This document shows, in pieces, positions 5,752 through 44,103 of a DNA stretch of 64,000 nt. Origin of the DNA: Alphaproteobacteria bacterium (GTDB lineage: Bacteria; Pseudomonadota; Alphaproteobacteria; SP197). Made by a program: the position numbers and the translations under genes. Position 1 is the stretch's first letter. Each line of letters opens with the position of its first letter. The notes under the pieces are model-generated. The model searched no databases. It was not told where the DNA came from and saw nothing but the letters and a program-made list of their open reading frames with translations. Where the stretch lies: the NCBI GenBank assembly GCA_965213815.1, contig OZ243917.1, positions 1,626,832 through 1,690,831 on the forward strand. The letters run 5' to 3'.

Positions 5752-5790
5752 CCTTGGAGCGAACGTTTTTGTTCGACCCGAGGAGCCGTT

Positions 5791-19233: not shown

Positions 19234-21602
19234 CAGACATCCTGACCTGATCTCCTGAGGGAGATTGCGTCGTCTTCCAGGAAATCCACTGTTTTCCTGT
19301 GGTTTCGCCCGTTCCGGGGCGGAATGTGCTTGACATGATGCGGTTTGTGTGGCCAATATATGGTGTTCCATCTGGAGGCTGCCATGGCCCCCTCCCTGTC
19401 GCTCCAGCCCGCCGATGCCACACCCATTGCCTCCTCCTTCTCATGGGCCGTCATCGACGGCACGGCCTGGTACTTCTCCAATCTCGATCCCTTCGACAGT
19501 CATGCCGCCGATGACACCCGCGCCAGGGTCCTGCGCATCGCCCGGTTCGCCACAGTCAGCGGTGTGCGCTGTGTCGACCTGGTCAGGGCCTTCGGTGTCT
19601 CGCGGCCCACCGTCTATCGTGCGGTGAAGCTCCTGGAGACCAGGGGCGAGACGGCCTTCGGTGCCCCGCGGCAGCCAAGACGGCGCACGGTGATCACCCC
19701 GGCGATGGCCCGGCGTGCCGGGGCCATGCTGGTTTCGGGCATGAGCGGCCGGGCTATCGCCGAAGCGCTCGGGGTGTCGCACAGCACCTTCAGCGAGAAC
19801 CTGCGCTCCGGTGTCATCGAGGCCCCGGTGGTCGAGGACGGGGCGGCAAGCGAGCGCTCGGCTCGCGCGAGGCAGGCGCGGGCTCCGGCGATGGGACGGG
19901 CCTGTCATGATGTCGACGGGCGCCTGCTGGCGGCGGTGGGGATGCTGGACGAAGCTCCTCCCCGGTTCGACACCCAGGCCCTTGCGGTGGAGCGCGGTGG
20001 TGTCCTGGCCGCCCTGCCGATGCTCCTGCGCGAGGGGCTTCTGGAGACGGCGCACCGCCTGTTCCGTCTGCCTCCGGGGTTCTACGGCGTCTCGACCATT
20101 CTTCTCATGGTGGCCTTCATGACCATGGCCCGGGTGCGGGCGCCGGAGAGGCTGCGCTATCAGGCCCCGGGAGAGTGGGGTCTTCTCCTGGGTCTTGACC
20201 GGTGTCCCGAGGTCAAGACCCTGAGGCAGAAGGTGGCGAGCCTTGCCGCATCCGGCGCCACGGTGGACGCATGGCAGCATGCCCTGGCGCGCTCATGGCT
20301 GGACGACGGTGACGAGGACTGGATGACGCTGGCCGTTGACGGTCATGTCAAGGTCTACAGCGGCAAGGGCAAGGTGCCGAAACACTTCGTGTCGCGCCAG
20401 AAGCTGTGTCTGCCGGCCATGGCAAGCTACTGGATCAACGCTCTTTCGGGTGCACCGCTTGTGTGTCTGCACAAGGATCTCGATCCCCGGATGGTGCATG
20501 CGCTGGAGCATGACGTGGCCCCCGAACTGGAGGCCCTGGGGATCGGTCCCGCAGGGGACCTTGAGTGTGGCGGGCAGCCGGCGTTCACCCTGGTCTTCGA
20601 CCGCGAGGGCTGGAGCCCGGATCTGTTCCGCCGTCTGGCGCGCCGCGGCATCGCGGTGATCACCTGGCACATGAACTTCCGTGGCGAGGACTGGCCGGTC
20701 GGGGACTTCCGGGAGTGCACGGTGCCGCTCCACGGACCGGCGGGAACCACGACGTCACGGATACGCCTGGCCGAGAAGGGGATCGTCCTGAAGAAGGGAC
20801 ACCGGGTCCGCCAGATCCGCCGCCTGCTGGACAATGGCCGCCAGGTGCCCCTGATCACCACCCACCCGGGAATGGCGATGGAAGAGGTCGCCGGAGCCAT
20901 GTTCTCTCGCTGGACCCAGGAGAACTTCTTCAAGTACATGCGCGATGCCTACAACCTGGATGGCCTGCCGGAGCATGGTCTCGAGGCGCTCGATGACGAC
21001 ACGCTCGTGGTCAACCCTGAGCACAGGAGCGTGCGCAAGGCCATCGCCAGGCATCAGGCGCGGCTCAACAGTGTGCATGCGCGGATCGCCAGGGCCAGGA
21101 AACAGGGCAAGGCTGTCGACGCTCTCGCCACCGAGGTCGCCGTCATCGAGGAGGCCCTCACGGAACTCAAGGAGCGCCGCGGGTCCCTGACCAGTCATGT
21201 CCGTGTCGGCGACCTTCCCGCAGACGAGAAACCCGACACCCTGCCACGGGCACGGCGACTCTTCATCGATCTCATCCGCATGATCTGCTATCGCGCCGAG
21301 ACCCGCATGATGATGCCCGTGATCGAGGACAAGGCCCGCCCCGACACCGTGCGCGCCTTGCTCGCCGCACTGATGACCGCCGATGCCAACATCCTGCCCG
21401 ACCATGACAAGGGCATCATCAGGGTCGAAATCCTCGGGCTGGCCAACAACGCAACCGAACAATCCCTGCTCCCCCTGATCGAACAGCTCAACCACACCAG
21501 AACCGTCTACCCCGGAACAAACCTCACAATGATCTACAGCATCGACAAGGCAACACCACGCAATCGTCTCATCTGATCTTGGCCGAGGTCCGGATGTCTG
21601 AA
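19232..21602 (+). mobile_element. Unclassified IS, about 2.37 kb, with imperfect terminal inverted repeats TTCAGACATCC(T/G)GACCT... and one long transposase gene.
   Basis: IRs at 19232-19252 and 21581-21602. A related right-end fragment lies at 47536-47752. Confidence 0.6.
19345..21576 (+). CDS. Long (about 740 aa) DDE-type transposase with an N-terminal HTH. Family not assigned.
   Basis: Transposase-like composition. Flanked by IRs. The C-terminus is conserved in a second fragment (47586..47837). Confidence 0.6.
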   Translation: MCGQYMVFHLEAAMAPSLSLQPADATPIASSFSWAVIDGTAWYFSNLDPFDSHAADDTRARVLRIARFATVSGVRCVDLVRAFGVSRPTVYRAVKLLETRGETAFGAPRQPRRRTVITPAMARRAGAMLVSGMSGRAIAEALGVSHSTFSENLRSGVIEAPVVEDGAASERSARARQARAPAMGRACHDVDGRLLAAVGMLDEAPPRFDTQALAVERGGVLAALPMLLREGLLETAHRLFRLPPGFYGVSTILLMVAFMTMARVRAPERLRYQAPGEWGLLLGLDRCPEVKTLRQKVASLAASGATVDAWQHALARSWLDDGDEDWMTLAVDGHVKVYSGKGKVPKHFVSRQKLCLPAMASYWINALSGAPLVCLHKDLDPRMVHALEHDVAPELEALGIGPAGDLECGGQPAFTLVFDREGWSPDLFRRLARRGIAVITWHMNFRGEDWPVGDFRECTVPLHGPAGTTTSRIRLAEKGIVLKKGHRVRQIRRLLDNGRQVPLITTHPGMAMEEVAGAMFSRWTQENFFKYMRDAYNLDGLPEHGLEALDDDTLVVNPEHRSVRKAIARHQARLNSVHARIARARKQGKAVDALATEVAVIEEALTELKERRGSLTSHVRVGDLPADEKPDTLPRARRLFIDLIRMICYRAETRMMMPVIEDKARPDTVRALLAALMTADANILPDHDKGIIRVEILGLANNATEQSLLPLIEQLNHTRTVYPGTNLTMIYSIDKATPRNRLI

Positions 21603-23337: not shown

Positions 23338-25236
23338 TTGGGCGCTTTTCCTTCGGTCTGTGCATGGTTGACTGGAAATCCCACGGTGATGGCGTTACAA
23401 GGGCGCCTGATGGATATCCGCCCGCACATGCTGCCCCCCGACCTGACGGAGGTGCCGGAAGGATTTTGCCTTTCGGAAGTCGAGGTGCGTCTGGCGACGT
23501 CGGACGAGCGCACGCTGTGGGATGCGCTGATGGTGGATCGGCACTATCTCGGGTTCAATCGCTTCACGGGCCGCGGTCTGCGCTACATTGCCGTGTGGCG
23601 GAGGCAGTGGCTGGCGCTGGGCGGCTGGCAGGTTGCCGCTCTCAAGTGCAGGCCGCGTGACCGCTGGATCGGCTGGAAGGCTGACGAGCAGTTCCGGCGC
23701 CTCCACATGGTTGCCAACAACACCCGGTGCCTGGTTCTGGCCGAGCCCGGTGTTATGGGGAACCTCGCTTCCTTCTTCATGTCCCGGATGACGCGGCGTC
23801 TTTGCGACGACTGGATGGACATCCATGGCCACGGCCTGTTGATCGCAGAATCGTTCGTCGACCCGTCGCGTTTCGTCGGCTCCATGTACAGGGCCTGCGG
23901 CTGGCAGGATCTGGGCAACACCAAGGGCTTTGCCCGGTGCAACGGCCACTACACGGACCCGCACGACAAGCCGAAGCGGATCCTGGTGCATGGCCTGCGC
24001 CGCGACGCCAGGCGTCTTCTGGCCCGGCCCGAGCCTTTGCCGGCGGACGTCATGCCGCCGCCGGATCCGGCCCTGGCCCCGCGCGACCTTGCGTCCATGC
24101 GCTCGCTCTACGAGGAACTGGCGTCGGTGGACGACTTCCGGCGCAAGCAGGGCATGAAGCACACGGTGGCCTGTGTGCTGACGCTGATCATCCTCGCCAC
24201 CTTCGCCAACATGAAGGGCTGCATGGCCGTGGCGCAGTTCGCACGGGCGCTGTCGCAAGAGGAACTCGAGGCCATCGGCGCCTGGAAGCGCCAGACCACC
24301 GGCCTTTGTGAGCCGGTCTCCAAGTCCACCGTCCACCGGGTCCTGCAATCCCTCGATCCCGAGGCTCTGGAGGACGTGCTGAAACGCTATGCCAGGCCCC
24401 GGTTTCCCCTGGCCCGGGCCCTGGCCGCCGACGGCAAGCGCATCCGCGGCGCCAACCGCAACGGCACCGGCCATCACGAGACTGTGTCCCTCGTCGATCA
24501 CATGACCGGAGCGCCGGTGGCCCTGCTCGGCTATGCCGAGCAGGGCGGCGAGATCGCGGCAACGCACGACCTTCTGGAACGCAGCGCCATCGCCGGCAAG
24601 GTGATCACCATCGATGCCCTGCACACAACCCGCGCCACCGCCCAGATGATCACCAGGCGCTTTTGTGCCGACTACATGATGACGGTCAAGGGCAACGCGC
24701 CGGAGACCTTCGCCCTGCTCGAAAGCATCGACTGGCAGCGCGACCGCACAGGGCACCACAAGGAGGACCTCGACAAGGCCCATGGCCGGCTTGAGCAGCG
24801 TCAGATCGATGTCATGACGCCTCTCAAGGGTCTGATCAACTATCCCGGCATCCGGCAGATCGCACGCGTCAGGCGGACCCGCGAACAACTCGGACCCAAG
24901 GCCGACGGAACGGTCAGCAACGAGTGCGCCTATGTCATCACCTCCCTTGGCGAAGAGGACGCCTCGCCGGCACAACTGCTGGCCCTCAATCGCGGGCACT
25001 GGTGTGTGGAAAATGCGAACCATCGAACCCGCGACACGCTTCTCGACGAAGACGCATGCCTGACCCGAACCAGGCACGGACCGCTGAACCGCGCCAGTCT
25101 CAACAACATCGCGCTTGCCGTCGTGTTCGCCATCCACCAGCCCGGTGAGGGGCCCGTCACCACCATGCGGCGCCTGCAACTCGATCGCGGAGCCGCCATC
25201 CGCGCCGTGTGCGAGCCTCCAGCCATCCCCGGCTGA
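23338..25236 (+). CDS. ISAs1-family (IS4-like, DDE_Tnp_1 plus DDE_Tnp_1_assoc) transposase with a long N-terminal extension (DUF4338-like).
   Basis: Motifs HTVACVLTLIILATFANMKGCMAVAQF and GHWCVENANHRTRDTLLDEDA. Confidence 0.65.
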   Translation: MGAFPSVCAWLTGNPTVMALQGRLMDIRPHMLPPDLTEVPEGFCLSEVEVRLATSDERTLWDALMVDRHYLGFNRFTGRGLRYIAVWRRQWLALGGWQVAALKCRPRDRWIGWKADEQFRRLHMVANNTRCLVLAEPGVMGNLASFFMSRMTRRLCDDWMDIHGHGLLIAESFVDPSRFVGSMYRACGWQDLGNTKGFARCNGHYTDPHDKPKRILVHGLRRDARRLLARPEPLPADVMPPPDPALAPRDLASMRSLYEELASVDDFRRKQGMKHTVACVLTLIILATFANMKGCMAVAQFARALSQEELEAIGAWKRQTTGLCEPVSKSTVHRVLQSLDPEALEDVLKRYARPRFPLARALAADGKRIRGANRNGTGHHETVSLVDHMTGAPVALLGYAEQGGEIAATHDLLERSAIAGKVITIDALHTTRATAQMITRRFCADYMMTVKGNAPETFALLESIDWQRDRTGHHKEDLDKAHGRLEQRQIDVMTPLKGLINYPGIRQIARVRRTREQLGPKADGTVSNECAYVITSLGEEDASPAQLLALNRGHWCVENANHRTRDTLLDEDACLTRTRHGPLNRASLNNIALAVVFAIHQPGEGPVTTMRRLQLDRGAAIRAVCEPPAIPG

Positions 25237-25695: not shown

Positions 25696-27714
25696 GGCTG
25701 ACTCCGCCCATCGGGTGCCAGCACCACCCGGCACCTCCCCTGACCCCGCTTCGGGCACCTGAATCGATGCTTCACGACTGATTTCGAGCGCTGTTGAGGG
25801 CCGGCGGTGACATCCGGACGAGCGGAAGCGTTCCGCTCAGACGGGTCTCGCGGAACGCCGGGCTTCAGCGGCAGCCTGGATCAGCTGGTATCGGGCAGGG
25901 TGCCGGTCCGCACCAGACTCCGCATCAGGTGGGGCTGGCGCTCCTCGACGCTGGCATGAGCCAGCGCCATCATCACCACGAGGGCGAGATTGACCCGGGC
26001 CTTCATCTTGCTCAAGCCCCGGATCGTGTGGTGCTCGAAGCCGAAGCTCTGATCAAGACGGCCATTGATTCTCTCGAGTGCGGACCGTCCCCGGTAGCAG
26101 CGGGCCCAGGTGAGTGAACTGCGGGGTGTCGGGGTGAAGATCCGGCGGTCGAGGTCGAGAGGCACCCGGACGATGCGGCCGTATCCTTGTGTGTGGCACT
26201 CACCGGCCGCCTCACAGACCTTCCGACCCTGGCAGTTGAAGCCATAAGCTGCCGCCGGACAGCGGTACTTGAGAGTTCCTCTCGTCGCCTCGAAGCCCTG
26301 GAAGGCCAGATCCCGTTCGGCGCCGGTCTCGGGACAGATGCAGCGGACCTCGCCACGTTCGGTATAGACCATGGTATCGGCCTTCCCGGCATCGAGCGGC
26401 CGACTGATCCGCTTCTTCGGGTCATGACCGGGCTCCGCCTTCTCGTGGCGCCACATCAGGCGGGTATCGATGATCGGGCGGACCTGCCAGGTCTCCCACA
26501 AGGTCCTCTTGAGAGAACCGCTGTCGTAGCCCCGGTCGGCACTCATGTCCCTGCAGCGTCGCGCCAGGTCCGGACTTTCCTCGAACAACGCCGGCAGCAT
26601 CCCTTCAAGGGTCTTGACCTCCGAGGCCGAGGCCTTCGTCAGCACCGCCGCGACGGGGATCTCATGGGTCGTGTCGGCGATCAGATGAAGAGTATAGCCG
26701 AACCAACTCTTGACCTTCGTCCAGACCTTGCCTCCGGCATTCACGCCCGAGGTCTCGTGCTTGCCCCAGTCCGCGTCCTGGTCCGACGTCGTGCCCGTCG
26801 TCGTGTTGACCACGCCCGTCGATTGGCTCGCGATGGCCTTGCCATCGCAGCCAAGGTGGACGCCGAAGTCGGGTATGAGATCCATCAGTCGGTGCCGCAG
26901 GTCGACGAGCATCTGTGACAGCAGTCCCTCCTCTTCCTCGACCCTGAGCAGGGACACGACAAAGCGTGACACATTGTAGCTCGAGGGGATCGACGAACGC
27001 TCCTTGCCAGCGATGACGTGGATCACTCCGGTCTGCGGATCCTGTCGAAGCCTGCGCTTGCCCCTCAAGGGCACCGGATGGAAGCCGCAGGCATCGAGCA
27101 AGGTCGGATTGCGGTTGAGTTCTCTCAACAGCGCCTCGATCGAGGGATGCTGGAAGACGATGCCGGCCACCAGGGCCCGCCACATGGCTTCGAGGGGATA
27201 GTCGTTGCGGCCCTTGCCGCGCCGTCTCTCGAGAGCCGCGATGAGGGCGTCGTCGGGCAGGGAATCGAGGACCCGTCGCAGGCGTTCGATGTCGGGAAGG
27301 CTCTCGACGTCGGACCAGGAGAAGAGTAAGGGTGTCTGTGTCGTCATGGCGCTGGTCGTACCTCCTTGCCGAGGTGGGGTTTGCACTCGAGACATAGCCC
27401 ATGACGACGCCTTTCGTCAATTTATTCCGTCAGTTAATACACCTCCGCACCATTCAGGAGGACGCCGTATGGTCACGTACGGCAGGCGCGGCGAGGAGAG
27501 GCTGTCGCCGGGCCGATGCCGGTTCAGCCCGCCTGCAGAGGCTGCCGGCGCGACGTGAGCAGGGCCCTGGGGTGGAATCCCGCCAGATGAGCCAGGGCCG
27601 GAACAGACAATCGTGTCTTCTCAGAAGGTTACAGGACGTCGATTGGGGGAAAACAAATTCCGACCCCCAACTTCCATCTATACTCTCAACGAGTTAGAAA
27701 CAACGCAGAGGTCT
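25654..27714 (-). mobile_element. IS5/IS1182-like insertion sequence, about 2.06 kb, flanked by an 8-bp direct repeat CTATCGAG (25646-25653 and 27715-27722). It splits the integrase gene between its LDR codons.
   Basis: The 8-bp target duplication and the reconstructed integrase reading frame across the insertion. Imperfect IRs AGAC..TGCG.TGT. Confidence 0.6.
25881..27347 (-). CDS. Transposase with an InsH-type N-terminal domain (DUF772) and a DDE domain. Likely IS5 or IS1182 family.
   Basis: N-terminal motif LPDIERLRRVLDSLPDDAL...GRNDYPLEAMWRALVAGIVFQHPSIEAL. Confidence 0.6.
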   Translation of the reverse strand: MTTQTPLLFSWSDVESLPDIERLRRVLDSLPDDALIAALERRRGKGRNDYPLEAMWRALVAGIVFQHPSIEALLRELNRNPTLLDACGFHPVPLRGKRRLRQDPQTGVIHVIAGKERSSIPSSYNVSRFVVSLLRVEEEEGLLSQMLVDLRHRLMDLIPDFGVHLGCDGKAIASQSTGVVNTTTGTTSDQDADWGKHETSGVNAGGKVWTKVKSWFGYTLHLIADTTHEIPVAAVLTKASASEVKTLEGMLPALFEESPDLARRCRDMSADRGYDSGSLKRTLWETWQVRPIIDTRLMWRHEKAEPGHDPKKRISRPLDAGKADTMVYTERGEVRCICPETGAERDLAFQGFEATRGTLKYRCPAAAYGFNCQGRKVCEAAGECHTQGYGRIVRVPLDLDRRIFTPTPRSSLTWARCYRGRSALERINGRLDQSFGFEHHTIRGLSKMKARVNLALVVMMALAHASVEERQPHLMRSLVRTGTLPDTS

Positions 27715-28096: not shown

Positions 28097-29406
28097 TTAG
28101 GGCTCTCGCCTGAATAACTTGTCCTTTTTGGTGGGATCAGTTATCCCTGCTACCATGGATGGTATGGTTGACACGCTACGCTCCAAGTTTGTGGGGTTGC
28201 GCCCGGTTCTTGACGAACGCGCCCGGCGTTTGTGGGCGGCGACGGAAGCGCGCGCCATCGGGCGCGGCGGCATTGCGAGGGTGGCTGAGGCGACGGGCAT
28301 GTCGCGGGGCACTGTTCGGGCTGGTCTGAAGGAGCTTGCGTCCGGCGTGGTTGCCGAGGCTTCTGGCGAGGCGCCATCGGGGCGTGTGCGTCGACCGGGC
28401 GCCGGGCGCACGCGTGTGACGGAACTGGACCCGGACCTTGTGGTGGCGCTGGAGCGTCAGCTTGAGCCGGTGACGCGCGGTGATCCGGAGAGCCCATTGC
28501 GCTGGACATGCAACAGCGCCGCGCATCTGGCGGACCGGCTTAGGGCCGAGGGTCACCCGGTCAGCGAGCGCACGGTGAACCGGCAGTTGCATGCACTGGG
28601 ATACAGCCTTCAAGCCAACGCCAAGACACTGGAGGGGCGCCAGCATCCGGACCGGGATGCGCAGTTCCGCTGCATCGACCGCCGGGTGCGCGCCTTCCAG
28701 AGGATGGGCCAGCCCGTGGTGTCGGTTGATACCAAGAAGAAGGAAATCGTTGGCCAGTACCGCAATGGCGGCCGTGAATGGCGCCCCAAGGGTGAGCCTG
28801 AGGCCGTGAAGGTGCATGACTTCCCCGATCCGGACCTGGGCAAGGCCATTCCTTACGGGGTGTATGACCTCACCGCCAACGCCGGCTGGGTCAGCGTCGG
28901 CATCGACCACGACACGGCGACATTCGCCGTCGAGACCCTGCGCCGCTGGTGGCAGCACATGGGACACCCGCTCTACCCCGATGCCAGGCGCCTGCTCATC
29001 ACCGCCGACGGCGGCGGCTCCAACAGCAGCCGCAACCGGTTGTGGAAGCTCGAACTCCAGAAACTCGCCGATGAACTCGGACTGACCGTCTCGGTCGCCC
29101 ACTTCCCGCCCGGTACCAGCAAGTGGAACAAGATCGAACACCGCATGTTCTGCCACATCACACAGGACTGGCGCGGCAGGCCCCTCGTCAGCTACCAGGT
29201 GTCGTCAAGCTGATCGCAGCCACTACGACAGGCGCCGGCCTCATCGTACACTCAGACCTCGATGGCAACTCCTATCCGCTCGGGGTCAAGGTCACCGACA
29301 ATCAGATGGAAGACCTTGCCATACGAAGAAACCCCTTCCACGGCGAGTGGAACTACAGTCTGTCACCACGAACATAACGTACAATCTATTTTGGCGAGAG
29401 GCCTTA
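28097..29406 (+). mobile_element. ISAzo13-family insertion sequence, about 1.31 kb, with 14-bp imperfect IRs TTAGGGCTCTCGCC / GGCGAGAGGCCTTA.
   Basis: IRs read from the sequence. Internal ISAzo13-type transposase. Confidence 0.7.
28119..29377 (+). pseudogene. ISAzo13-family transposase. A frameshift near 29210 splits it into 28119..29213 and 29123..29377 (...VVKLIAATTTGAGLIVHSDLDGNSYPLGVKVTDNQMEDLAIRRNPFHGEWNYSL).
   Basis: Family motifs (LDERARRLWAA; C-terminal NPFHGEWNY). Two overlapping ORFs in the track. Confidence 0.6.
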
Positions 29407-30378
29407 GCGCAGCAGTCCCGACGCATACCCGCAAGCGATGCCAACCCTCCGCCAACCGGCACGCCGCGGAGGCGCTTGCCACGAAAACCCCACAATGGAA
29501 GCACCAAGGGAAGAAGACGGATACCTCGCCACAGATATGATCATGCCTTCACGAAACCCGATGCCGTGTCCAAAACCGTGCCTTACAGCCAATGTTCCGC
29601 GTTTTGCAAAACCGCCGATAGACCGGCCGGAACGACACGCCACGGCACTCCCGGTGCCGCGCGACGCCATCGCAGCCGGCTGCCATCATGCAGTCCGTCT
29701 TTCCGCCCGTTCAAACTTCCGTTGCGTCATCCGGCCCCTGACCGAGCTCACGCCCGGGACCAGTGCCCGCGTCACCAACGTCGCGCTTGCACTGATCATC
29801 CTCAAAGAACGGGTTCGTTTCGGTAGCCCGGTTTCCGTTGACCCTGAGCGTCTCGATCCTGGCGTCCAAGATGACTGTCAGCGCTGACGAACCGTGCCGT
29901 CAGGCCATCATTCGAGCGAATCTGGCTGCCGCCCACACCGGCAATCGGGACGCTGGCAGTGTATCCGTGACGGCCGGGTCGCCAGGATCGGGTTCGTGCG
30001 GACAGCCCTGCCACAGGCATGGACGACTCCGAGACCCTGCATTAGGTTTGCGCTGTGCTGGTGCAGATGGAAATCAACGGATAACCGGCTCTCAAAGTGC
30101 GCAGGCTCGCGATCCGTCGATCAGCTTCGATGCCGTTGACAGGGCTGGCTCGGTGGTGCCGCGACTCAAGTGACGTTTCATGCCTCGGGTGATCGGCCGG
30201 GGCGGCCATGATAGTTCGGTCTCCAGGATTGCGCACGGGTAGAAGCAGGCAATGACCCAGACAAGATTCGTGACAATGACCACCCTTGCGACCTGCCTCC
30301 TAACTCGTTGCGTCATGTGGTGGAGGAGGCGGTGGTGGTCCCGGCCCCGGTTCCGTCCTGGACAGACCACCAACAGTC

Positions 30379-32589
30379 ATGCCTGACCCACCCCCGTCCA
30401 ATGCCGCAGATCTCCTCGGCACGCCCCGGTTCACGACGCACCAGCCACTCGTTCTGGAGCAGATCGGCGCACATCATGCCTACGCCAGAGGCCTGACCGG
30501 CAGAGGCATCAGGATCGGGATCGACGACACGATCGTCGACTACACGCAGCAGGCCGAGTTCGAAGGCAGGATAGCGCTCACGGCGGCTGACGGCGCGGAC
30601 CTTGCCTACAACCGTCCGGACGGGAACGAGTACTTCAGCCATGTCGGCAACTGCCAGTTCGCCCGAACATGCGACATCTGGCAGGCCGACAGTGCGGGAG
30701 ATCCTGAAGCGGTCAACAACTGGGTGCAGCAGATCGTGGACGAAAACGGGTGGCCCCTCAGGGACGATTCCGTCTTTATCCGGGACGAGCACTACAGCGA
30801 GTCCGACGCTCTTGAACGGCTGTATCGATGGAAGGAGGTGCCAACACCTTATGAAGAAGGCGCCCACGGAACCATCGTGGCTTCAGTCGCGGCCGGGAAG
30901 AACCTCGGTGTGACGCCGGCAGCAACCATCATTCCGGTTGCACAGAATCTCACCGACGACCAGAGAGCGGACATCCTGGCCGACGCCACGGTGCGACAGG
31001 CGATTGCGCTTCTTTCCCCTGCAGACCGACATCAGCTGGATATGCAGTTGGCAAGCGACCAACGGGTCGAGTATGCGAAGTTCGATATCATCAACCGATC
31101 CTACGGGACACCCATCTTCGATCCGGAGGTGGTCTCCAGCGCTGTTGATTCGGAAATGCGATGGTACCGGCGGTACATGCCCCGCTACCTCGATGCCGTA
31201 TTGCAGGTCGACAGGTCTGCCGATGAGAAGACCATTCTTGTTTACGCCGCCGGCAACGAGGCAGAACCCTGGTCCGGTCTGGGAGCGGACCTGCCCTATT
31301 ACATCCCGGAGTTGAGAGGACACTCCCTTGCCGTCGCTGCAACGGATCCGCAAACGGGAGCCATTGCCGAGTATTCCAACCGATGCGGTACCCTTCCGCC
31401 TGACTGGAATGCCGCGAGACACGGCCCGCACTACTGCCTCGCCGCGCCAGGCACGGTCCGGGGCCTCGTGCCGAACCAGAATTCGCCCGGGCAGGGCGAC
31501 GTGGGTGACGGACTGAAGGGAACCAGCTACGCCGCGCCCATGGTTACAGGAGCGCTTGCGCTGATGATGGAGCACTTCCGGGGGACGCGCGGCAACACCG
31601 AGGTCGCGAAGAGGATGCTCGATACGGCGGACCGAAGCGGACGCTACGCCGATCTGGAGGTCTATGGGGCTGGGCACCTCGATCTCGAGGCCGCGCTGGC
31701 GCCCGTCGGCGCGCTGAACGTCGGCCCGTCGGCCCAGGCGATCCACAGCACCGTGTTGCAGACGCCCGCGGCCTTCGGCTCCCTGGCGTCGCGTACCGCC
31801 AGCCTCGAAGTCGCCGCCTTCGACAGCCATGACTTTCCATTCTGGGTTCCGGTATCGGCATTGATTTCAACTCGGACGAGCCAGCATTCTCCCATCCCCG
31901 AGATCGATGAGGCAGCACCCGAGCCAGCCACCGGACTCGACGTTCTCGGCCTCCATTGGACCCCTCTCGCAGACCTCCACAGCAGTGGACCCGCGGCCAA
32001 CCGGAACTGGGTGGCGGGCTTCAATCCGACATCCGCCAGCCTCGCACGCCAGCCCGTGGATGGTGGCTGGGGCTACGGCCTCAGCGTCGATGCAGACAGT
32101 TATCTGGGAGCACGTTCGTCCGGCGCATTCGGATCGGATCTCACCTCCGGCATGATCTGGGCCTCCCACAGCCGCAGCCAGGATCTCCCGAACGGCTGGG
32201 CACTGGAGGCCGCGGGAACGCTGGCGTTCAGCATCCCTGCCTACGAGAGGGACGCGATCTTCCAGGCCTCTCCCTCCGTGCTTTCGTCATTCTCGATGCA
32301 GGTTGGCACGCCCGGGACGCACCTCTCAGTCGAGCAGCCGCTGCGTGCCGAAACGGGTACAGGCACGTTCGTTGTGGATAACGGATGGATAGAGAACGGG
32401 CGCAGGCTCCATGATGAGCACCGCGTTTCGCTCAGTCCCGATGCACGGGAGATGCGCATCACGCTTCGTCACGAGGCAGACGCGGCCGGTGGCCGCATCG
32501 CCCTCAAAATAGGAGGCGCACTCAACTCCGGTCACATTCCAGGCGAGCAGGAAGCGACCACGGGCTTGGCCTGGCGCTTCCTCTGGTAG
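30379..32589 (+). CDS. Subtilisin-like (S8) serine protease autotransporter, NalP-like. Catalytic triad D (GIRIGIDDTIVD), H (HGTIVASVAAG) and S (GTSYAAPMVTG), then a C-terminal beta-barrel ending ...LAWRFLW. The lipoprotein signal peptide is in a different frame upstream (30252-30303); see finding.
   Basis: Motifs in the 736-aa ORF. C-terminal aromatic residue typical of outer-membrane barrels. Confidence 0.7.
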   Translation: MPDPPPSNAADLLGTPRFTTHQPLVLEQIGAHHAYARGLTGRGIRIGIDDTIVDYTQQAEFEGRIALTAADGADLAYNRPDGNEYFSHVGNCQFARTCDIWQADSAGDPEAVNNWVQQIVDENGWPLRDDSVFIRDEHYSESDALERLYRWKEVPTPYEEGAHGTIVASVAAGKNLGVTPAATIIPVAQNLTDDQRADILADATVRQAIALLSPADRHQLDMQLASDQRVEYAKFDIINRSYGTPIFDPEVVSSAVDSEMRWYRRYMPRYLDAVLQVDRSADEKTILVYAAGNEAEPWSGLGADLPYYIPELRGHSLAVAATDPQTGAIAEYSNRCGTLPPDWNAARHGPHYCLAAPGTVRGLVPNQNSPGQGDVGDGLKGTSYAAPMVTGALALMMEHFRGTRGNTEVAKRMLDTADRSGRYADLEVYGAGHLDLEAALAPVGALNVGPSAQAIHSTVLQTPAAFGSLASRTASLEVAAFDSHDFPFWVPVSALISTRTSQHSPIPEIDEAAPEPATGLDVLGLHWTPLADLHSSGPAANRNWVAGFNPTSASLARQPVDGGWGYGLSVDADSYLGARSSGAFGSDLTSGMIWASHSRSQDLPNGWALEAAGTLAFSIPAYERDAIFQASPSVLSSFSMQVGTPGTHLSVEQPLRAETGTGTFVVDNGWIENGRRLHDEHRVSLSPDAREMRITLRHEADAAGGRIALKIGGALNSGHIPGEQEATTGLAWRFLW

Positions 32590-32593
32590 TCCG

Positions 32594-32857
32594 ATGCGCC
32601 CCATTCTGGCAGTTGCATGCGTCGCCACCCTGGCAACCGCGTGCGCGGAGCAACAAGGACGGGAACCTCCGCACGCTCCGATCGTGCAGGACGGCGCCAT
32701 TTACACCCCCGCCGATGTCGGCCCACTGGGGTGCGTACTCTACAGCATCGAGATTCCGGGATTCCACACGCCGGCAGCCTTGGTCTACAGAAACGACGAT
32801 GGTTCATTCAGTTATGCCCGACCTGAGCGCTGTGAAAAGACTGAAGAAAAAAGATAG
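32594..32857 (+). CDS. Small putative lipoprotein (87 aa; signal peptide with lipobox LATAC). It starts 5 bp after the protease stop and is probably co-transcribed.
   Basis: Signal peptide and lipobox. Function unknown. Confidence 0.4.
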   Translation: MRPILAVACVATLATACAEQQGREPPHAPIVQDGAIYTPADVGPLGCVLYSIEIPGFHTPAALVYRNDDGSFSYARPERCEKTEEKR

Positions 32858-33400
32858 GCGTCACGCATTCGGCGAGGTCCTGGTTTGCTTCGATGGGTCA
32901 TGTTTCAAGCAGGAGCGGATTGGCGTGGGAGCGAGGATCGTGTGGGGCAGGAAGTGGCGTGGCCCATTCTTCTTTTCCTTGCATGGCGGCAACCCCCCGT
33001 TTGCGTGCGACTCTATCGCGATGAGGAATGATCAGCGCGCACAGCATCAATTCTTGCATCGCCCGGTGGGGCGCTGCCGGGCCATTGAAGCAAGGGTCCG
33101 GTCTGGGTTTCGCCGGCTCGGAAGATGTCCACGGGGTCATGTTGACGACCGGAGATAGCAGGGGTTAAACTTGACGTGCGGTTGAGGGATCTGACTATGG
33201 CCGTATGCACATCGCAAGAGGCGATTCGCCGGTGAGCCAGGAGAACGGATGTCCTTGTCCTGAGGGGTGTGTCCTTTTTGCAACACGGTCTGAAGGATCG
33301 CCGCTTGACCGGTTGTCCCCCGACGGGGTTAGATAGTTTTGTTTACACACCCGATTCGATTCGGGCCACGCATCATCCTTGCAAGGGAGAAATGTAACCT

Positions 33401-34966
33401 ATGACCAGATTGAACAAACTTACCGCACTTGCGGCAGTTGTGGCCTTGTCGGTCGGGCTTGCTGCGTGTGGCGGTGGGTCGTCATCCACGACCATGATGG
33501 ACACAACTCCGGACCCAGCCGTTGAGCAGAAGATGTCGGCAGAGCAAGCCATTGCAATGGCAAAGGCTGCCGTGGACGCGGTCACCACGAGTGCGACCGA
33601 CGCACAAGTTGCGGCTGCGAATCAGGCCATCGCGGACGCCACGGCCGCAGTTACGGCAGGTACGGCCCTGTCGGCGGCTGACATGACAGCACTCAACGGG
33701 CAGATCGCAGCAATCCAGGGCAATCTCACCCAGCGTTTGGCGGATCGTCAGGCCGTTGCGGATGCGGATGCCATAACCGACAAAGAGAATGCAGAGCAAG
33801 CTGCGGCAGACGCGAAGGCCAGGATTGCATCAGCGAAGGCTCTCGAGGGTGCTATTGCGAGTGCAGCAGCTGTAGCGGACCTCACGGTCTCAATGGATTC
33901 AATTCCTGTGATCACAGATGGCGACGGCACAACCACCGCGATCACGCTTAAGGCAGGTGACGAGGTTGGTTCCCTCGGAGGCTGGATGGGCATGACCCGC
34001 AGCGGCACGGATAGTGAGGAGGATGATGCGAACAGCGGCGAAGCCAGAATCTATACCAACCAAGACGCTGACAAAGTCACCACTCACGCATTTATTAGTG
34101 AAGCCGCTGCGGTTGCACGTACTGGACTGACGATCAACGACGGGGCTGGTGACGTTGACGACGACTACACCGTCGGCCAAGAGGCTCACAAACACATCGA
34201 CAGCCCCAGTTTCCCAATGAGGGGAACAGTAACTTACACCGAAGATGATCGTAAGTTCACTGGCACCTTCAAGGGTGCGTCAGGTACCTATCAGTGCACC
34301 GTCCTCTCGTGCACCGCTGTTTACGGCGAAGAGGGTCTCAGTCTGACAGGAACTTGGACCTTCACACCCGCTGCAGGTGCCATGCTGGATGTCGTCGTAG
34401 AAGACGGTGAATACCTGTACTTTGGATGGTGGGTCCGCAAGGACGACGAGGGAACTCCAACACATGCGGGTGTCCTTTCTGGTGCAGTCGGTGACGATCT
34501 GCCCCCAGCGCCGGGCATCGGCACTGCCGACCTCGTTGGCGAGGCCACTTACACCGGCAAGGCCGCAGGCAAGTTTGCCGTCAGCGACCCGATCAATCCG
34601 GCTAGCGACAACTCCGGCCACTTCACCGCGGATGCTGAGTTGATGGCCGACTTCAAGGATGACGGTGCCACTCTGTCTGGCACTATCGATGCCTTCAGGT
34701 TGAATGATGGTAGCGAGGATGCTGGTTGGAGTGTTGAGTTGAAGGAGGCAACATTCTCCGTCGACACGTTCGCAGCTGGTACAGACGGCACTGTCTGGTC
34801 CGTTGGCGACAACAGCGGCAACGCATCGGGTGAGTGGGAAGCGCAGATGTTCGACGAGGAGACCGATGACGACAGCAATGTCCCAACGACCGTTGTCGGT
34901 AGCTTCATGTCAGATATCGGCACCACACACAGCATGGTCGGCGCGTTCGGTGCCCACGTCGACTGA
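33401..34966 (+). CDS. Surface lipoprotein SLP2 (521 aa; lipobox GLAAC, poly-Gly/Ser linker, TbpB-like C-terminal barrel ending MVGAFGAHVD). It is the expressed copy, with a GGGAGA RBS and an ATG.
   Basis: Signal peptide and lipobox. C-terminal GAFGA motif typical of Slam-dependent surface lipoproteins. Confidence 0.7.
   Translation: MTRLNKLTALAAVVALSVGLAACGGGSSSTTMMDTTPDPAVEQKMSAEQAIAMAKAAVDAVTTSATDAQVAAANQAIADATAAVTAGTALSAADMTALNGQIAAIQGNLTQRLADRQAVADADAITDKENAEQAAADAKARIASAKALEGAIASAAAVADLTVSMDSIPVITDGDGTTTAITLKAGDEVGSLGGWMGMTRSGTDSEEDDANSGEARIYTNQDADKVTTHAFISEAAAVARTGLTINDGAGDVDDDYTVGQEAHKHIDSPSFPMRGTVTYTEDDRKFTGTFKGASGTYQCTVLSCTAVYGEEGLSLTGTWTFTPAAGAMLDVVVEDGEYLYFGWWVRKDDEGTPTHAGVLSGAVGDDLPPAPGIGTADLVGEATYTGKAAGKFAVSDPINPASDNSGHFTADAELMADFKDDGATLSGTIDAFRLNDGSEDAGWSVELKEATFSVDTFAAGTDGTVWSVGDNSGNASGEWEAQMFDEETDDDSNVPTTVVGSFMSDIGTTHSMVGAFGAHVD
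33413..33490 (+). repeat. About 78-bp segment (SLP2 signal-peptide/lipobox codons), about 92% identical in inverted orientation to 41138-41215 at the 5' end of SLP3.
   Basis: Hand alignment found about 6 mismatches over 78 bp. Confidence 0.7.
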
Positions 34967-36251: not shown

Positions 36252-37625
36252 TCAGAACTGCTGGACGAAGCGCAACTCGCCCGAGGTTCGACTGTAGCCG
36301 TGGAGCTGGGCGTTACTTTCGCGGGTCTCACGGACGACCGCGAGTTCGGGGCTGAACCCCATCAGGTTCAGTGCCCGGTTGTAGGTGGAAAGCCTGTACG
36401 ACCGGGTACGGTCCTCGCGCGGGCCGTTGTCGGCAACGAAGGGAAACCAGCCCCGTTCGTAGTCCGTCCAGCGCATCTCCGCACTGCCGCCGACCGTAAA
36501 GCCCAGGGGAAGGGCAACGGTGATGCCCGTGCCGAGCCACCGGCCACGGTGGCGCTCGTGCCGGGCCTTCGGTCGCTGCTGCGCGTAGCCGGCGGAGACA
36601 TCGGCCCGCACCGTCGGCATGACCACCCACGAGCCGCGCAGGGTCGCATCCCAGACCGGACCATCCAGGCGGGTCCGGGTGCGGTAGCGACGGTCGTGCC
36701 ACGACGTCTGGGCGCTGGCGGTCACCCGCGGGCCCAGCCGGTGGGCGGCCTCGATGCGGACGCCCAGGTCGTGGTAGTCGGGCGTGCTGGACCAGCGCTG
36801 CCGAGCGCTCGCCAAAAGGCTCGCCTCTGTCGAGGCGTCCAGAAGCCAGCGCGGACCGAGATGGAGGGCAACGAAGTGCTGGTCGAAGTCGGAGCGGGCG
36901 TACTCTCGCCGAGATGCCTGCGCGCCGGCGCGGATGCGCAGACTGTCGGAGACCGGCGCCTGGTACTCCGCCCCACCCCAGAACGACAGACCGATGCCCG
37001 ACCTGGTCAGTTCCTCTGCGTCCCGCTCGAACGGAAGGCCGTAGATGATGATGGTGCGCTCGTTTGACGTGCCGCCAATGTTGGTGTCCGGTGCCACCGC
37101 GAAACCCAGATTGAAGCTCCAGCGTTTGCGGGCACGAATCTCGGCAAGAAAGGCGTTGACGTTGCTGGCCACCGCTTCGGGCGGCTCGCCCGCAAGTACG
37201 TGCTCGAAATGCCGCAGGGCGAGTTCGTCCTCACCTTTCAGGAAGAAGGCGCGGGCCAACTCCAGGCGCACCCGCACCAAGTTCGGATCGTGAACCAGCA
37301 TGGTGTGGAAGGCGGCGATCGCCTCATTCAGCAAAGCGTCGCGCTCCTCCTCGGTACGCCCGGGGCGCTGAGCCGCCCCGACGGCGGCGAGGCCGTAGAG
37401 AAAGAGCGTATTGGGTTCGACCGCTTCCCCGAGGAGCAGGGGCTGCAAAAGGCCAAAAGCATCTTCGAACCGTCCGGCGTCGATCAACTCCTGCGGGCTT
37501 GCCGCCTCGACCGCGTCCGCGGCGTCGGAGGACTGCGCCCCGGCGTGGTGAGCGGAGAGCAGGGCGAAGAGGAGACAGGCGGCGAGCGCCAAGGTGCGGT
37601 AGGGCGATGCGGAAGCAGAGAGCAT
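36252..37625 (-). CDS. Slam (surface lipoprotein assembly modulator)-type outer-membrane translocator. Signal peptide, periplasmic TPR region, and a C-terminal DUF560 14-strand barrel (...RALNLMGFSPELAVVRETRESNAQLHGYSRTSGELRFVQQF). Start is ATG 37625 with an AAGAGG RBS.
   Basis: Domain architecture and C-terminal motif. It is co-located with TbpB-like lipoproteins. Confidence 0.75.
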   Translation of the reverse strand: MLSASASPYRTLALAACLLFALLSAHHAGAQSSDAADAVEAASPQELIDAGRFEDAFGLLQPLLLGEAVEPNTLFLYGLAAVGAAQRPGRTEEERDALLNEAIAAFHTMLVHDPNLVRVRLELARAFFLKGEDELALRHFEHVLAGEPPEAVASNVNAFLAEIRARKRWSFNLGFAVAPDTNIGGTSNERTIIIYGLPFERDAEELTRSGIGLSFWGGAEYQAPVSDSLRIRAGAQASRREYARSDFDQHFVALHLGPRWLLDASTEASLLASARQRWSSTPDYHDLGVRIEAAHRLGPRVTASAQTSWHDRRYRTRTRLDGPVWDATLRGSWVVMPTVRADVSAGYAQQRPKARHERHRGRWLGTGITVALPLGFTVGGSAEMRWTDYERGWFPFVADNGPREDRTRSYRLSTYNRALNLMGFSPELAVVRETRESNAQLHGYSRTSGELRFVQQF

Positions 37626-37639
37626 TGTGCCTCTTGGCA

Positions 37640-39620
37640 GGAACGGCGACATCGGTGACATCACAACGAGGTGATCAGGATAGGGAGGAGAGCCGCGCGG
37701 CTCCACTTCTCTCACACCACCGAGTGTACGGGTCTGTACCCGGCAGTTCAACGGATTTGAGCTGTGGCATGGTTCGCGAACGGGACGAGGCCAGGCCGGG
37801 TGAAGAAGGCGTTGAGCAGTGCACAGAAAAGCACGGGGCCGTTGCTGAGCCACCATGGACCATGGGCACCGCCGGCAGTTTTCGTTACCAGATGCTTGTT
37901 GACACTGAGGCCGCGCAACGCAACGAAGCGTGTGCGTCCGCGCTTCCTTTGCCGCCAGACGATGGCACGAAGCCTCCGACTGACCCATCGGTCGAGGCGG
38001 TGCGGCACCAAGGGGTTTCGCAGAAGTCGAAGTAGCCCGGCGTTCCGACGAGGTAGCGAGTCAGCTCCGTAACGAAGTGAACGAGACTGACGCTCCTCAA
38101 ACAGCGCGTCAGTGCCCGGATCCGCGTCTTGAGCCGGGCAAGCTCCGGCTGCGGCGTGATGCGCCGCCTGGGTGTCCGCTCGGCCGTGAAGCCGAAGCCC
38201 AGTGATGCCTGCGCCGACGCCCGGCCAACAGCGCTCTTGTCTGTGTTCATCGTCAGCTTGAGCCGCCGGGCGAGGAAGTCGGTCACGCTCGCCATGACTC
38301 GCTCGCCCGCTGAGACAACAGGTAGATGCTGCAGTCGTCGGCGCAGCGCACAAAGCGGTGGCCGCGCTTCTCCAACTCCTTGTCCAGAACGTCGAGCATC
38401 AGATTCGACAGAATCAGCGAGAGCGGCCCAACCTGCGGGACTCCCTCGGTCATTGGGCCAACAGCCCACCTTCCAGAACGCTCGCGGTCAGGAAGTCGCG
38501 GATCAGCCTGATCAAGCGTTTGTCGGCCACCAGACCCATCAGAACGTCGTGATTGACCCGGTCGAAGAACTTTTCGAGATCAAGATCGACCACGATACCG
38601 AAGACCGCGCTGATATGATCCTGCGCGCACTTGACCGCTTGATGGGCTGAGCGTCCGGGCCAGAACCCGTGGCTCGCGTCTGAGAGGGTGGGAGCCCAGG
38701 TCCCCCTGCAGCACCTGCATCACCGCCTGCTGGATGAAGCGGTCGAGCACCGTTGGTACACCGAGCGGACGAATCCCGCCTGATGCCTTCGGTATCTGTA
38801 AACGCCGCACCGGCTTCGGGGTGTAGGCACCATCAAGAAGCCGGGACGTGATCTCAGGCCAATGGCTCTTCAGGTGGTCATCCAAGTCATCGACGGTCAC
38901 ATCGTCGATACTGGGCACCCCTTGTTGCGGTGGACACGCGCCAGCGCCTTCCGCAAATTGCCGGGCTGGATCACCGCCTCCATCGACGGTCCCTGCCCGG
39001 CCGCAGGGCGTTCGGGCTCGACGCGCGATGCAGACTTCGGTCCCCTGGCGTCCGACGCTCCGGGCTTCACCCTTCGCCGCCGACACCAAGGCCAGTTCCA
39101 GCTGGATTTTCTGTCGCCGGGGCCTCATGAGCGTGCCGTCCTGGCAACCCTGTCCATCGTTCAGGCCTTCACCAGAGAGCCGGCTACTAAGCCTTCTGCT
39201 GACTTCTGCGCCGCAATCACGGCCCTTGCGGAACCGCTCAGCCGGGAACTTCCGAACACGGCGCAGACCCCAAGGTTGAGACCAACCGCCTTCACCGCAC
39301 TCCCGTCGGATTTGCCACCCCGACCCTTGATGGCTCTGGGCTTCGCAATCATTGGCCCGCTCGTCCGGCCGGGTAGGCCTCGTATCCGGTTCTTGTTCAT
39401 CGGATCGCGGCTTTGCTCCACACTTCCTTCAATCACCGCCTCGCGACGACGCCCTTGCGTTTCGCTGATCCTTCGCCGCCATCGGGCTGGGATAGAGGAC
39501 TTGCATCTCCAAGCTGTCGATCATGCTCGGCACACAAAGAGAGGGTGGCACGCAGTGCCACCCTCCTCAAGTCCGACCCAAGTAGTCTGGAACCTGTCGC
39601 AAGGTCCCAGACCAATCAGA
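37640..39620 (-). mobile_element. Degenerate group II intron between SLP3 and the Slam gene. The RT/maturase is broken into at least three frames (38580..39128, 37885..38469, 37748..38353), and the YADD region is lost.
   Basis: RT motifs LLDGAYTPKPVRRLQIPKASGGIRPLGVPT, FLARRLKLTMNTDKSAV and RLRAIVWRQRKRGRTRFVALRGLSV in separate frames. Confidence 0.6.
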
Positions 39621-39629: not shown

Positions 39630-41215
39630 CTATTCTTCTTCCTTGACCCTAGCGCCGAAGGCACCGGCCACCGAGCCATCGCTGAACACGGCACCAAACT
39701 CGCCGACCACGGAGCCCGGATGGGGAGCGACACCTTCGACGGCCGTCACGTCCCCATGGAACGTCGCGCTGAAATCGCCGACATCGTCGTCGCCCACCAT
39801 GGTGTTGCCGGACGCTGTGCCTTCAGCCGCATCGATATCACCATCCAGAGCCGCAGACCAACTGTTCTCCTCATCGCCCGACAACATGAAGTTGCTGACC
39901 ATGCCAGTGAGAGTGTTCAGCAGGTTCTCAGCAATGGTGCCCGTGTCGTCACCATCGGAAACCGGAACCTGACCGAAGGTTGCCTTCAGGTTGACGGTTG
40001 CATGGAAGTCGCCGGAACTACGGTCAATGACGTCACCCGTGGAGGAATCATACTCATTGTTCATCGTGTACACGCCAACTGCGCCACCGCTGTACTCGGC
40101 GCTTCCCGTGACACTGGCAACACTTCCGCTTGTCTGAGCCGACGAACCGGCGAAGGTCTCGACCTCGTTATACGTGACCATATCGTCTGCATCCTCTGTC
40201 TTCTGAAGCCAGAAGCCATAGTGCAGGTAGTCATACTGCGGCTGAGGTGACTCGGCACCCATGGCAGGGGTGAACACCCAACCGGTGCCAACTGCGGAGA
40301 TCTCTCCCATTGCATCATATGTGACTTGGCATCGACTAGTACCGGTGCACCGATAGGTGCCCGGTGCGCCGTTGTAGGTGCCTTCGGTTTCGAAGGCCTC
40401 GTCCATATCCGCAGTATCACTATCGTCAAAGGCATAGGTCAGATCACCAGCCCCACTGGACGAAAACCCACTCGCCATGATCTGCGCGACATTGGCAGTT
40501 ATGACATTCAGAGCCGTGTAGTCGTTGGTCATGTTACCGTCACCATCGGTGCCGTCCATGTTTTCATCAAGGTCACGGGCGTTCAGCATCTGAGGCATAT
40601 CTGTTGTTGTCGATGTGCCGTCATCAGATACGGTTACGAGTTCGAAGTCCGCGAACGACACCATTGTTGGTGCGTCACGGTCATTGTAGACGATCGCGAC
40701 TTCTGTCACCACGTTTCCGTCGTCGTCAGCATCATGCATGCGAGTGTGCATGGTGCGGCCATCCATCATGTCCTCAGCCAAATCGAACATGACATCATCT
40801 TTGTCGGTAGCTTCCACGGTGATCGAAACCTTCGTGCCATCTTCATCAATGGCAAGGGTGTAACCTATCACCGGCGTGCCATCGGTCATGGAGCCGCCAA
40901 GCCCAGCATCCGCATGCATTTCAGTGGTCCCCAGACCTCCCTGGGCGGCCTCCGCGGCGATGGCCGTTGCTTTCGTGCCAGCCGCCTTGGTTGTCGCAGC
41001 TAACTCCGCGGCCTCTTCTGCGGCCACATCCTCGGCGCTCGTGCAGGATCCGTCGGTTTCATAGCGGCCCATCGCCATCTCGCATTCTTGTTGCGCGGTC
41101 AGCTCTGGCTCCGGCTCCGGCTCCGGCATAGCCGTCTTGGACGACCCGCCACCGCACGCAGCAAGCCCGCCCGACAGGGCCACGACTGCCGCAAGTGCGG
41201 TAAGTTTGTTTAACG
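39630..41215 (-). CDS. Surface lipoprotein SLP3, a paralogue of SLP2. The body is intact (TbpB-like C-terminus ...GSVAGAFGARVKEEE). The signal-peptide codons (TLNKLTALAAVVALSGGLAAC) are present, but no ATG/GTG/TTG start codon or RBS precedes them (TGCACGTTAAAC in place of ATGACCAGATTGAAC). It is a silent copy or a start-codon pseudogene.
   Basis: Hand translation upstream of track ORF 39630..41183. An in-frame stop lies 14 codons upstream, with no start codon between. Confidence 0.6.
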
Positions 41216-41356
41216 TGCAAGTGGCTTCTGTGGTAGCGTCCGTAGCCGATGGCCTTCAACAGGGGATCCTTCGGCGGACGCGCCATGTCCGCACCATCGC
41301 CAGAAGGCCTTCGACAGTCGGTCGGGAATGCAAGTTCCCGGCAATCCGGAGTTGTC

Positions 41357-42298: not shown

Positions 42299-42641
42299 CG
42301 ATCAATGCACAGTGCTTGTCCGGTTGTCGTTCAGCACTTGTCTTGCCGACACGTCCGGAGTGCGCTGAAGGTCATCATTTTCTCGCGATCCGCTGCGTTG
42401 GAGACGACCAGGATGAAATCGGTGGCCTCTTGATGAAGTCGAGGCCCGTGGGTCCTCGATGGCCATGCGGTCACATCGCCGCGGGCCAGCCCCAGTCGAA
42501 GTTGGTAGGGGCTTGAACTATCCCAGCAGGACTTCAACGAGGTGTTGCTGCGGCTGCGCCTCTTGTCCTCCCCGGCTTGGCCGATGAACGGGCCACCGCG
42601 CGCCGGGTTCTGGGTGCGGATGGATCAGACGTATTACCGGG

Positions 42642-43694: not shown

Positions 43695-44103
43695 GCCGGT
43701 TCCTTTCATCGAGACTCCGCCTCCCTTGTCAATCGACGGGGCAGGACCGAAAGGCCAGCGTCACCCACCGGGTAATCCTCCGTCAACCGCCCTGGAGATC
43801 AACCCCGGCGATCGGGTGCCTGCGGCGAGGGAAAGGGCCCATGACGAAATGTGCGAGGACATCTGCTGTCGTCTATCGTGCGGAAGCCGGTGTTGCAAAT
43901 GACGCGTCACGCTTCGGTGCCATATCGACTCCGGTGCGTCCCGCTGTTGTCCGACGCTGAACCCGCTCGGGTCCGCCCGACGAATGTCCGTGCCTGTGTT
44001 TTGTAGCGCTGCGTATACCGTTGAAACCCAGCTGCACCGCTTGTCGTAACGTAACTGCTCACCCCTCCCTGGGCCACAGACGCGGCATATCCCTGGTGTC
44101 GGC

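Follow-up and report, generated by a model that had tools for sequence, protein, structure and literature searches.

A frame break separates the lipoprotein signal peptide from the S8 protease in an alphaproteobacterial gene

The protease locus and its frame break

The window considered in this study is a stretch of 64,000 nucleotides from an Alphaproteobacteria bacterium (GenBank assembly GCA_965213815.1, contig OZ243917.1, positions 1,626,832 to 1,690,831 of the forward strand), and all positions are counted from its first letter. On the plus strand it carries a gene for an S8 protease of the subtilase type with a predicted C-terminal barrel, in which the lipoprotein signal peptide lies in one reading frame and the remainder of the protein in another. 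The explanation favored here, with some reserve, is a real and recent inactivation of the gene.

The frame opened by ATG 30252 encodes MTQTRFVTMTTLATCLL, which supplies the start codon and the n- and h-regions of the signal peptide (30252..30302, plus strand) and matches the N-termini of the related proteins P0002 and P0005 and of the protein encoded at the related locus L001. Read onward, the same frame gives a residual open reading frame (ORF) of 44 codons (MTQTRFVTMTTLATCLLTRCVMWW...; 30252..30386, plus strand), composed of the signal-peptide head and an out-of-frame tail; the exact 44-aa peptide was not present in the protein collection searched. The end of this residual ORF, with its TGA at 30384-30386, overlaps ATG 30379 (ATGCCTGA). 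The frame of 30250 has a TAA at 30301-30303, after which it continues as LVASCGGGGGGGPGPGSVLDRPPTVMPDPPPS... and stays open up to the stop at 32587-32589. The lipobox L-V-A-S-C and a tract of seven glycines lie in this second frame (30304..30339, plus strand, frame of 30250/30304), with the Cys codon TGT at 30316-30318 and Gly7 at 30319-30339, but no start codon reaches them, and the first start codon 3' of the TAA is ATG 30379. The longest remaining ORF (30379..32589, plus strand, 736 aa, identical to P0001) holds the S8 protease and the C-terminal barrel without an export signal; its N-terminus, MPDPPPSNAADLLG, has no hydrophobic core and is not a signal peptide.

Most of this arrangement had been described in a first-pass annotation of the window, which placed the signal peptide in the ATG 30252 frame and the protease one base on, noted the TAA at 30301-30303, and remarked that the longest ORF, from ATG 30379, lacks an export signal. 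The frame translations agree on each count, as does a tblastn search with the intact orthologue P0002, in which residues 20-61 align to 30174-30302 (one high-scoring segment pair thus ending at 30302) and residues 62-825 align to 30304-32586 in a different frame. The same annotation proposed that a +1 correction would produce LVAS-C followed by poly-Gly, and removal of one base does restore CLLLVASCGGGGGGG, which is found family-wide. It gave the site of the shift as 30297-30306, of which the start is right and the end is one base short, CTCCTAACTCG being 11 nt long and spanning 30297-30307; this is the sole inaccuracy in its positions. On sequence grounds, the likeness of the upstream-frame signal peptide to that of an orthologue is no chance resemblance, because 16 of the 17 residues encoded by its first 17 codons are identical to those of L001, the closest orthologue, and because removing one base restores the family sequence.

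The leader upstream of the protease appears non-coding (29621..30251, plus strand) and is conserved with the related loci L001 and L002, with blastn blocks covering 29621-33499 and homology starting at 29621 beside an insertion sequence (IS) element. Given this conservation, the promoter region of the protease has presumably been retained. A 3' remnant of the gene upstream of the protease in L001 is detectable at 29555-29884; that gene is perhaps a spurious call, and the remnant was not used.

Comparison with related loci

A search of a large protein collection with the repaired 778-aa sequence returned 721 homologues, of which the best 120, with 58-100% identity to the repaired protein, were analyzed. 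A lipoprotein signal peptide with a lipobox and Cys-Gly(n) is present in 106 of these 120, n being 4-8 and mostly 7. The N-terminus of the closest relatives, M-T-Q-T-R-F-V-...-A-T-C-L-L-L-V-A-S-C-G7-P-G-P-G-S, is what the window would encode with one base less.

The DNA at the lesion was aligned with that of five related loci, the protein identities of which are 88% (L001), 83% (L002), about 78% (L003 and L004), and 69% (L012). Where the window has CTCCTAACTCG, these five show CTCCT-GCTCG (once CTTCT-CCTCG). Relative to them, the window has AA in place of a single G at 30302..30303 on the plus strand, a net one-base insertion that is formally G to AA, falls within codon 17/18 of the signal peptide, and generates the TAA in the downstream frame. 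The single-base change suspected in the first-pass annotation is therefore correct as a net gain of one base, but it is not a plain one-base duplication, since the change is G to AA against all five relatives. Its remark that no homopolymer lies at the shift site also stands, the longest run there being AA.

The comparison with orthologues that the first-pass annotation had recommended covered 15 related loci. All 15 encode a single uninterrupted frame, M..CLLLVASCGGGGGGG.., with a normal signal peptide, and the frame break is unique to the window's genome among the loci examined. The explanations offered beforehand, namely a pseudogene or off-state or else a single-base assembly error, hold in light of these single-frame orthologues and the one extra base at 30302/30303. 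Recurrent disruption of the signal peptide in relatives was considered, as P0003, P0091, P0107, and P0119 look N-terminally truncated, and was rejected; at the DNA level each of the four has an ordinary lipoprotein signal peptide in frame, and the truncated look is due to the start codon chosen by the gene caller. A scan of metagenome contigs for same-species alleles with the pattern ACCTGCCTCCTN{1,2}CTCGTTGCNTCATGTGG gave no matches.

Proteins with the lipobox, poly-Gly, S8, and barrel arrangement (loci L003-L013, proteins P0002-P0120) occur at about 51-69% identity among metagenome-assembled genomes (MAGs) of varied labels, namely Alphaproteobacteria, Binatia, Rhodospirillales, Deltaproteobacteria, Gammaproteobacteria, Thiotrichales, Chloroflexi, and Nitrospira. 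From the isolate names, many of these MAGs are apparently sponge-derived bins. What this range of labels points to is either horizontal spread inside a single habitat or mis-binning.

Domains of the protease and state of the rest of the gene

The only domain found in a Pfam search of the repaired 778-aa protein is Peptidase_S8 (PF00082, E=5e-28, model positions 1-288 of 288), which covers residues 83-474 and lies at 30499..31674 on the plus strand. Every residue that is invariant in the family is kept in the window copy, among them, in the numbering of the repaired protein, the candidate triad Asp92/His205/Ser425, oxyanion Asn335, and the pairs Cys134/Cys140 and Cys378/Cys395. The best NCBIfam matches, all below cut-off, are mycosin and the autotransporter serine peptidases EprS and fusolisin, and the sole PDB sequence match is the Serratia subtilase autotransporter Ssp (8e7f). 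A Foldseek search with the whole protein likewise matched only subtilases, namely subtilisins and Ssp.

The C-terminal beta-rich domain (32008..32586, plus strand) is predicted in AF2 models to form 12 long antiparallel strands and ends in ...GLAWRFLW; the whole-protein model has a mean pLDDT of 66.9, and the model of the C-terminal domain alone one of 62.6. All top Foldseek matches of the domain model are outer-membrane barrels (FadL, Pla/OmpT, OmpG, OMPLA, and the EspP and BrkA beta-domains), and these matches are weak (E of 4e-3 or more, TM 0.2-0.3). Searches by sequence gave no such match: the autotransporter beta-domain PF03797 was not matched by Pfam in the C-terminal ~290 aa even at E<=10, a PDB profile search with the C-terminal domain found nothing, and hhalign of this domain against the Escherichia coli Ag43 beta-domain gave a probability of 0.9%. 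From the models, the C-terminal domain is probably an outer-membrane barrel or translocator.

Apart from the frame break, the gene is in good order. At conserved columns (at least 90%, n=314), the window copy deviates at 11, all conservatively; across the family, the median number of such deviations is 7 and the highest is 16. When changes were polarized with three outgroups, the window branch had 45 synonymous and 26 non-synonymous codon changes and the branch of the intact sister L001 50 and 24, respectively. Relaxed selection on the window branch was rejected on these figures, as the ratio of synonymous to non-synonymous changes matches that of the intact sister and the 11 deviations are within the family range. 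Judged from the sequence, the frame break is either very young or artefactual, because the remainder of the gene is intact and without relaxed selection.

Origin of the frame break

The explanation that we consider rather probable is a real and recent inactivating mutation of the protease gene, which would be an ordinary young frameshift pseudogene and no regulatory device. The intact family protein would begin with a Sec/LspA signal peptide and the lipobox Cys, continue through a tether rich in Gly and Pro to the S8 domain, and end, after a linker, in a barrel of about 12 strands with an aromatic last residue. By analogy with NalP and SphB1, an intact orthologue would be exported, lipidated on the Cys, and carried to the outer membrane (PMC9977779, PMC5472700), where the barrel would be inserted and the protease displayed on or released from the surface. 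In the window's genome, a very recent change of G to AA at 30302-30303, within codon 17/18, would cause translation from ATG 30252 to end after 44 codons and leave everything from the lipobox onward without a start until ATG 30379. Termination and reinitiation at ATG 30379 would yield at best some cytoplasmic 736-aa protein, for which there would be no export, no lipidation, no disulfides between the four invariant Cys, and no membrane insertion. Export appears to be needed for the function of the protease, given these four Cys, the lipobox, and the predicted outer-membrane barrel. The window allele would then be functionally null and a young pseudogene, because a 736-aa product without a signal peptide cannot be lipidated, disulfide-bonded, or inserted into the outer membrane.

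The nature of the change itself bears on whether it is real. CTA makes up 1.6% of the Leu codons in window genes and none of the 62 in the protease gene. The compound change of G to AA, which creates this rare CTA, speaks somewhat against a simple sequencing error and for a real mutation, because a one-base error would need in addition an adjacent real substitution to the rarest class of Leu codon. A decaying neighborhood that is rich in mobile elements and holds other damaged genes would also favor a real mutation. The gene resembles the frameshift pseudogenes of mobile-element-rich genomes, with an early single indel in one genome, an accessory surface gene, and a location in an island where IS elements, introns, and integrases occur beside further broken genes. 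There is no material difference from such pseudogenes; the single oddity is that the rest of the window gene is undecayed, hence the event would be extremely young, or an error.

Several points weigh against inactivation. The allele has been judged on the assembled sequence alone, with which a consensus error is compatible, and it is known (as P0001) from one 3.85-Mb contig only; the collections searched held no second sample of the same species, the closest relative being 88% identical. The gene is otherwise perfect, which is precisely what an artefact predicts. A second frame break at a non-homopolymer site, in a transposase gene 1.1 kb away, could mean sporadic indel errors. Finally, the sequencing platform is inferred from the contig naming of related records only.

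The alternative to which these points lead, an assembly or consensus error, is possible but on the whole rather doubtful. The gene would then be intact and read CTA CTC or CTG CTC (CTCCTACTCG or CTCCTGCTCG), the extra A having been introduced when a metagenome-derived chromosome was sequenced or assembled. It has in its favor that the single offending base extends A to AA in a gene with no other flaw and no relaxed selection, and that the second break is isolated, which is consistent with indel errors at a low background level. It has against it, besides the compound change, that related records look like long, high-accuracy assemblies, that the site is no homopolymer, and that about 25 other window ORFs (37 kb), with 35 homopolymers of at least 5 bases among them, are all full length relative to Pfam models. 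The integrity of these ORFs was judged by Pfam model coverage; a gene map based on GC3 was dropped, its strand assignment being unreliable.

The second break lies in a transposase gene of the ISAzo13 family (28119..29377, plus strand), which is split by a -1 frame change such that ORF 28119-29213 carries PF07592 positions 2-252 and ORF 29123-29377 carries positions 252-308. The change is near 29186-29195, at a site without a homopolymer (..AGCTACCAGGTGTCGTCAAGCTGA..), upstream of the lesion. Either the transposase gene too is a real pseudogene, or its frame change is another indel error.

Explanations in which the break is real and useful fare poorly. Programmed +1 ribosomal frameshifting, or another form of recoding, by which a regulated fraction of ribosomes would produce the full lipoprotein, is very improbable. 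The required shift is +1, the zero-frame CUA is very rare and could be decoded slowly, and the downstream gene is fully conserved, all of which speak for such recoding. To keep the lipobox Cys, however, the shift would have to fall at CUA-A or ACU-C, and no +1 re-pairing is available, as CUC would become UCC, CUA would become the stop UAA, and ACU would become CUC. The upstream sequence is CCUCCU, which is not a Shine-Dalgarno-like stimulator. A stimulatory RNA structure was tried as well; a GCCUCCU/AGGAGGC stem exists, but the local fold (z=-0.5) is no better than that of shuffled sequence. Evolutionary conservation is a hallmark of programmed frameshifts, and there is none here, the break being absent from all the relatives examined. 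Genes of the prfB/RF2 type likewise require a +1 shift near a rare codon and near a stop that is in frame in the neighborhood of the target frame. The window site differs from theirs: neither a slippery codon nor an upstream Shine-Dalgarno stimulator is present, and orthologues do not conserve the shift.

The two halves of the stem, GCCUCCU (30294-30300) and AGGAGGC (30323-30329) on the plus strand, are perfect complements that flank the lesion, and the pairing is kept in relatives. It is probably a by-product of Leu- and Gly-coding sequence.

Reversible phase variation by slipped-strand mispairing, with the window copy in an OFF state, is likewise most unlikely. It is suggested by nalP of Neisseria, which varies in phase through a poly-C tract in its coding region (PMC3723659, PMC5472700), and by where the break lies, at the 5' end of a gene for a surface protein, a common place for switches. 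The window copy is like nalP in being switched off by a frame change close to its 5' end, but the inactivation is a unique non-repeat indel and not a change in a poly-C tract. Neither a homopolymer nor a short tandem repeat is present at the site or close to it, the Gly tract consists of imperfect GGN repeats whose length varies in steps of three, and the relatives are fixed in frame at the site without length polymorphism. Least probable of all is a real and tolerated extra base at which ribosomes shift +1 at the rare CUA (CUA-A-CUC), a newly arisen 'leaky off' switch that, if true, would give a low-level, tRNA-availability-dependent lipidated surface protease from a non-repeat site.

Relationship to lipidated autotransporters

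NalP from Neisseria meningitidis and SphB1 from Bordetella pertussis belong to the lipidated subtilase autotransporters and cleave other proteins of the cell surface (PMC9977779, PMC5472700). Among these is LbpB, a Slam-dependent lipoprotein that is released by NalP (PMC5472700, PMC9977779). The nalP gene is phase-OFF in about half of meningococci and disrupted in gonococci (PMC5472700).

The protease family resembles these type Va proteins in several respects. At the N-terminus it has a lipoprotein signal peptide and lipobox Cys, with a flexible tether rich in Gly and Pro behind them; its passenger is an S8 subtilase whose candidate triad is complete; and its C-terminal domain, about 290 aa long, is predicted to be a 12-strand barrel and has an aromatic last residue. 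The best matches of the S8 domain are autotransporter subtilases (Ssp 8e7f, EprS, and fusolisin). A link to Slam is a further likeness: genes for a surface lipoprotein and Slam adjoin the protease of the window, and LbpB, which NalP releases, is Slam-dependent. There are differences too. The C-terminal domain of the family has no sequence homology to the autotransporter beta-domain, and the beta-helix stalk of Ssp has no counterpart in the family protein. In the window copy, the elements of the signal peptide are all present but split over two frames. The hosts of the family are, apparently, sponge-associated MAG lineages and not pathogens.

By analogy, the family protein probably works like NalP or SphB1, the likeness being one of architecture and not of barrel sequence. 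The term 'NalP-like', used in the first-pass annotation, is accordingly apt for the architecture and the probable mode of action, but not for homology of the barrel sequence to the autotransporter beta-domain. Autocatalytic release and the cleavage of other surface proteins may also occur, an indirect hint being the adjacency of Slam and surface-lipoprotein genes in four loci.

Neighborhood of the protease

Directly downstream of the protease are genes for Slam (PF04575) and TbpB-like lipoproteins, not only in the window but also in L001, L002, and L004; in L003 and L005-L012, no Slam gene was found within 6 kb. In L004, the Slam homologues appear as several tblastn fragments. The Slam gene of the window (36252..37661, minus strand) is apparently intact, with PF04575 SlipAM positions 1-285 of 288 and TPR_Slam, and its likely start is at 37661 or 37625. 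Two paralogous lipoprotein genes (..LNKLTALAAVVALS.GLAAC-GGGSS..) flank it. The first (33401..34966, plus strand; MTRLNKLTALAAVVALSVGLAAC-GGGSSS...) encodes a putative Slam substrate and is homologous to genes that flank the Slam genes in L002. The second (39630..41212, minus strand) is without its original start codon and 5' end, which have been replaced. Its homology to the paralogue at 33401 begins at codon 4 (~41212), the DNA upstream belongs to the integrase gene 41249-42298, and the sole possible start left is a GTG halfway along the h-region. The whole is a Slam/TbpB-like lipoprotein locus in a probable sponge-symbiont alphaproteobacterium.

Linkage to Slam may reflect a protease-substrate relationship in the closest clade, which is speculation. 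The protease as a Slam substrate in its own right was considered and rejected as the main reading, the adjacency being confined to the closest clade and the barrel not being TbpB-like. Slam-dependent lipoproteins of the TbpB, LbpB, fHbp, and HpuA type share with the protease a Gly-rich linker after the lipobox Cys, as well as the location beside Slam and TbpB-like genes in the window, L001, L002, and L004. Theirs, however, is a small soluble 8-strand barrel, while that of the protease is predicted, with modest model confidence, to be of the long 12-strand membrane type.

The regions 1-30000 and 41000-57000 form an island dense in mobile and defense-type genes. They include HipA (8509-9771), a TrwC relaxase without its helicase part (16711-18849), transposases (19345-21576 and 25881-27395), a DruA-like/DDE fusion (23338-25236), and three tyrosine integrases (41249-42298, 54458-55642, and 55639-56772). 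A group II intron is present as two identical tandem copies in 1731-5760 (plus strand), 2015 bp apart, with reverse transcriptase/maturase ORFs at 1934-3568 and 3949-5583 and Rfam matches to D1-D4 and domain V/VI; the perfect tandem duplication could be due to real retrohoming or to an assembly artefact. The 5' segment of a third group II intron (RF02001, RF01998) is found at 39164-39450 (minus strand), just downstream of the truncated lipoprotein gene. Past 47 kb, the GC content falls from about 0.64 to about 0.57. Three Porin_4 paralogues (48654-49658, 53416-54390, and 57111-58148) are interleaved with two Sulfotransfer_1 genes (47684-48586 and 52500-53345), all of full length, and this repeated and unusual combination may relate to modification of the surface or of host glycans.

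Significance

For annotation, the better course is to join the two pieces of the gene and mark the result as a frameshifted pseudogene, or else to check them against reads, and not to report a 736-aa cytoplasmic 'S8 peptidase'. If the inactivation is real, it is one more routine loss of a surface-exposed accessory gene in a mobile-element-rich island. The family itself, defined by a lipobox, poly-Gly, an S8 domain, and an unclassified C-terminal barrel, is uncharacterized, and the named records among the best 120 homologues span several phyla. By analogy, its members could be NalP/SphB1-like sheddases of symbiont surfaces. The protease family occurs widely among MAGs, of which many are apparently sponge-associated, and this is the part that may merit follow-up.

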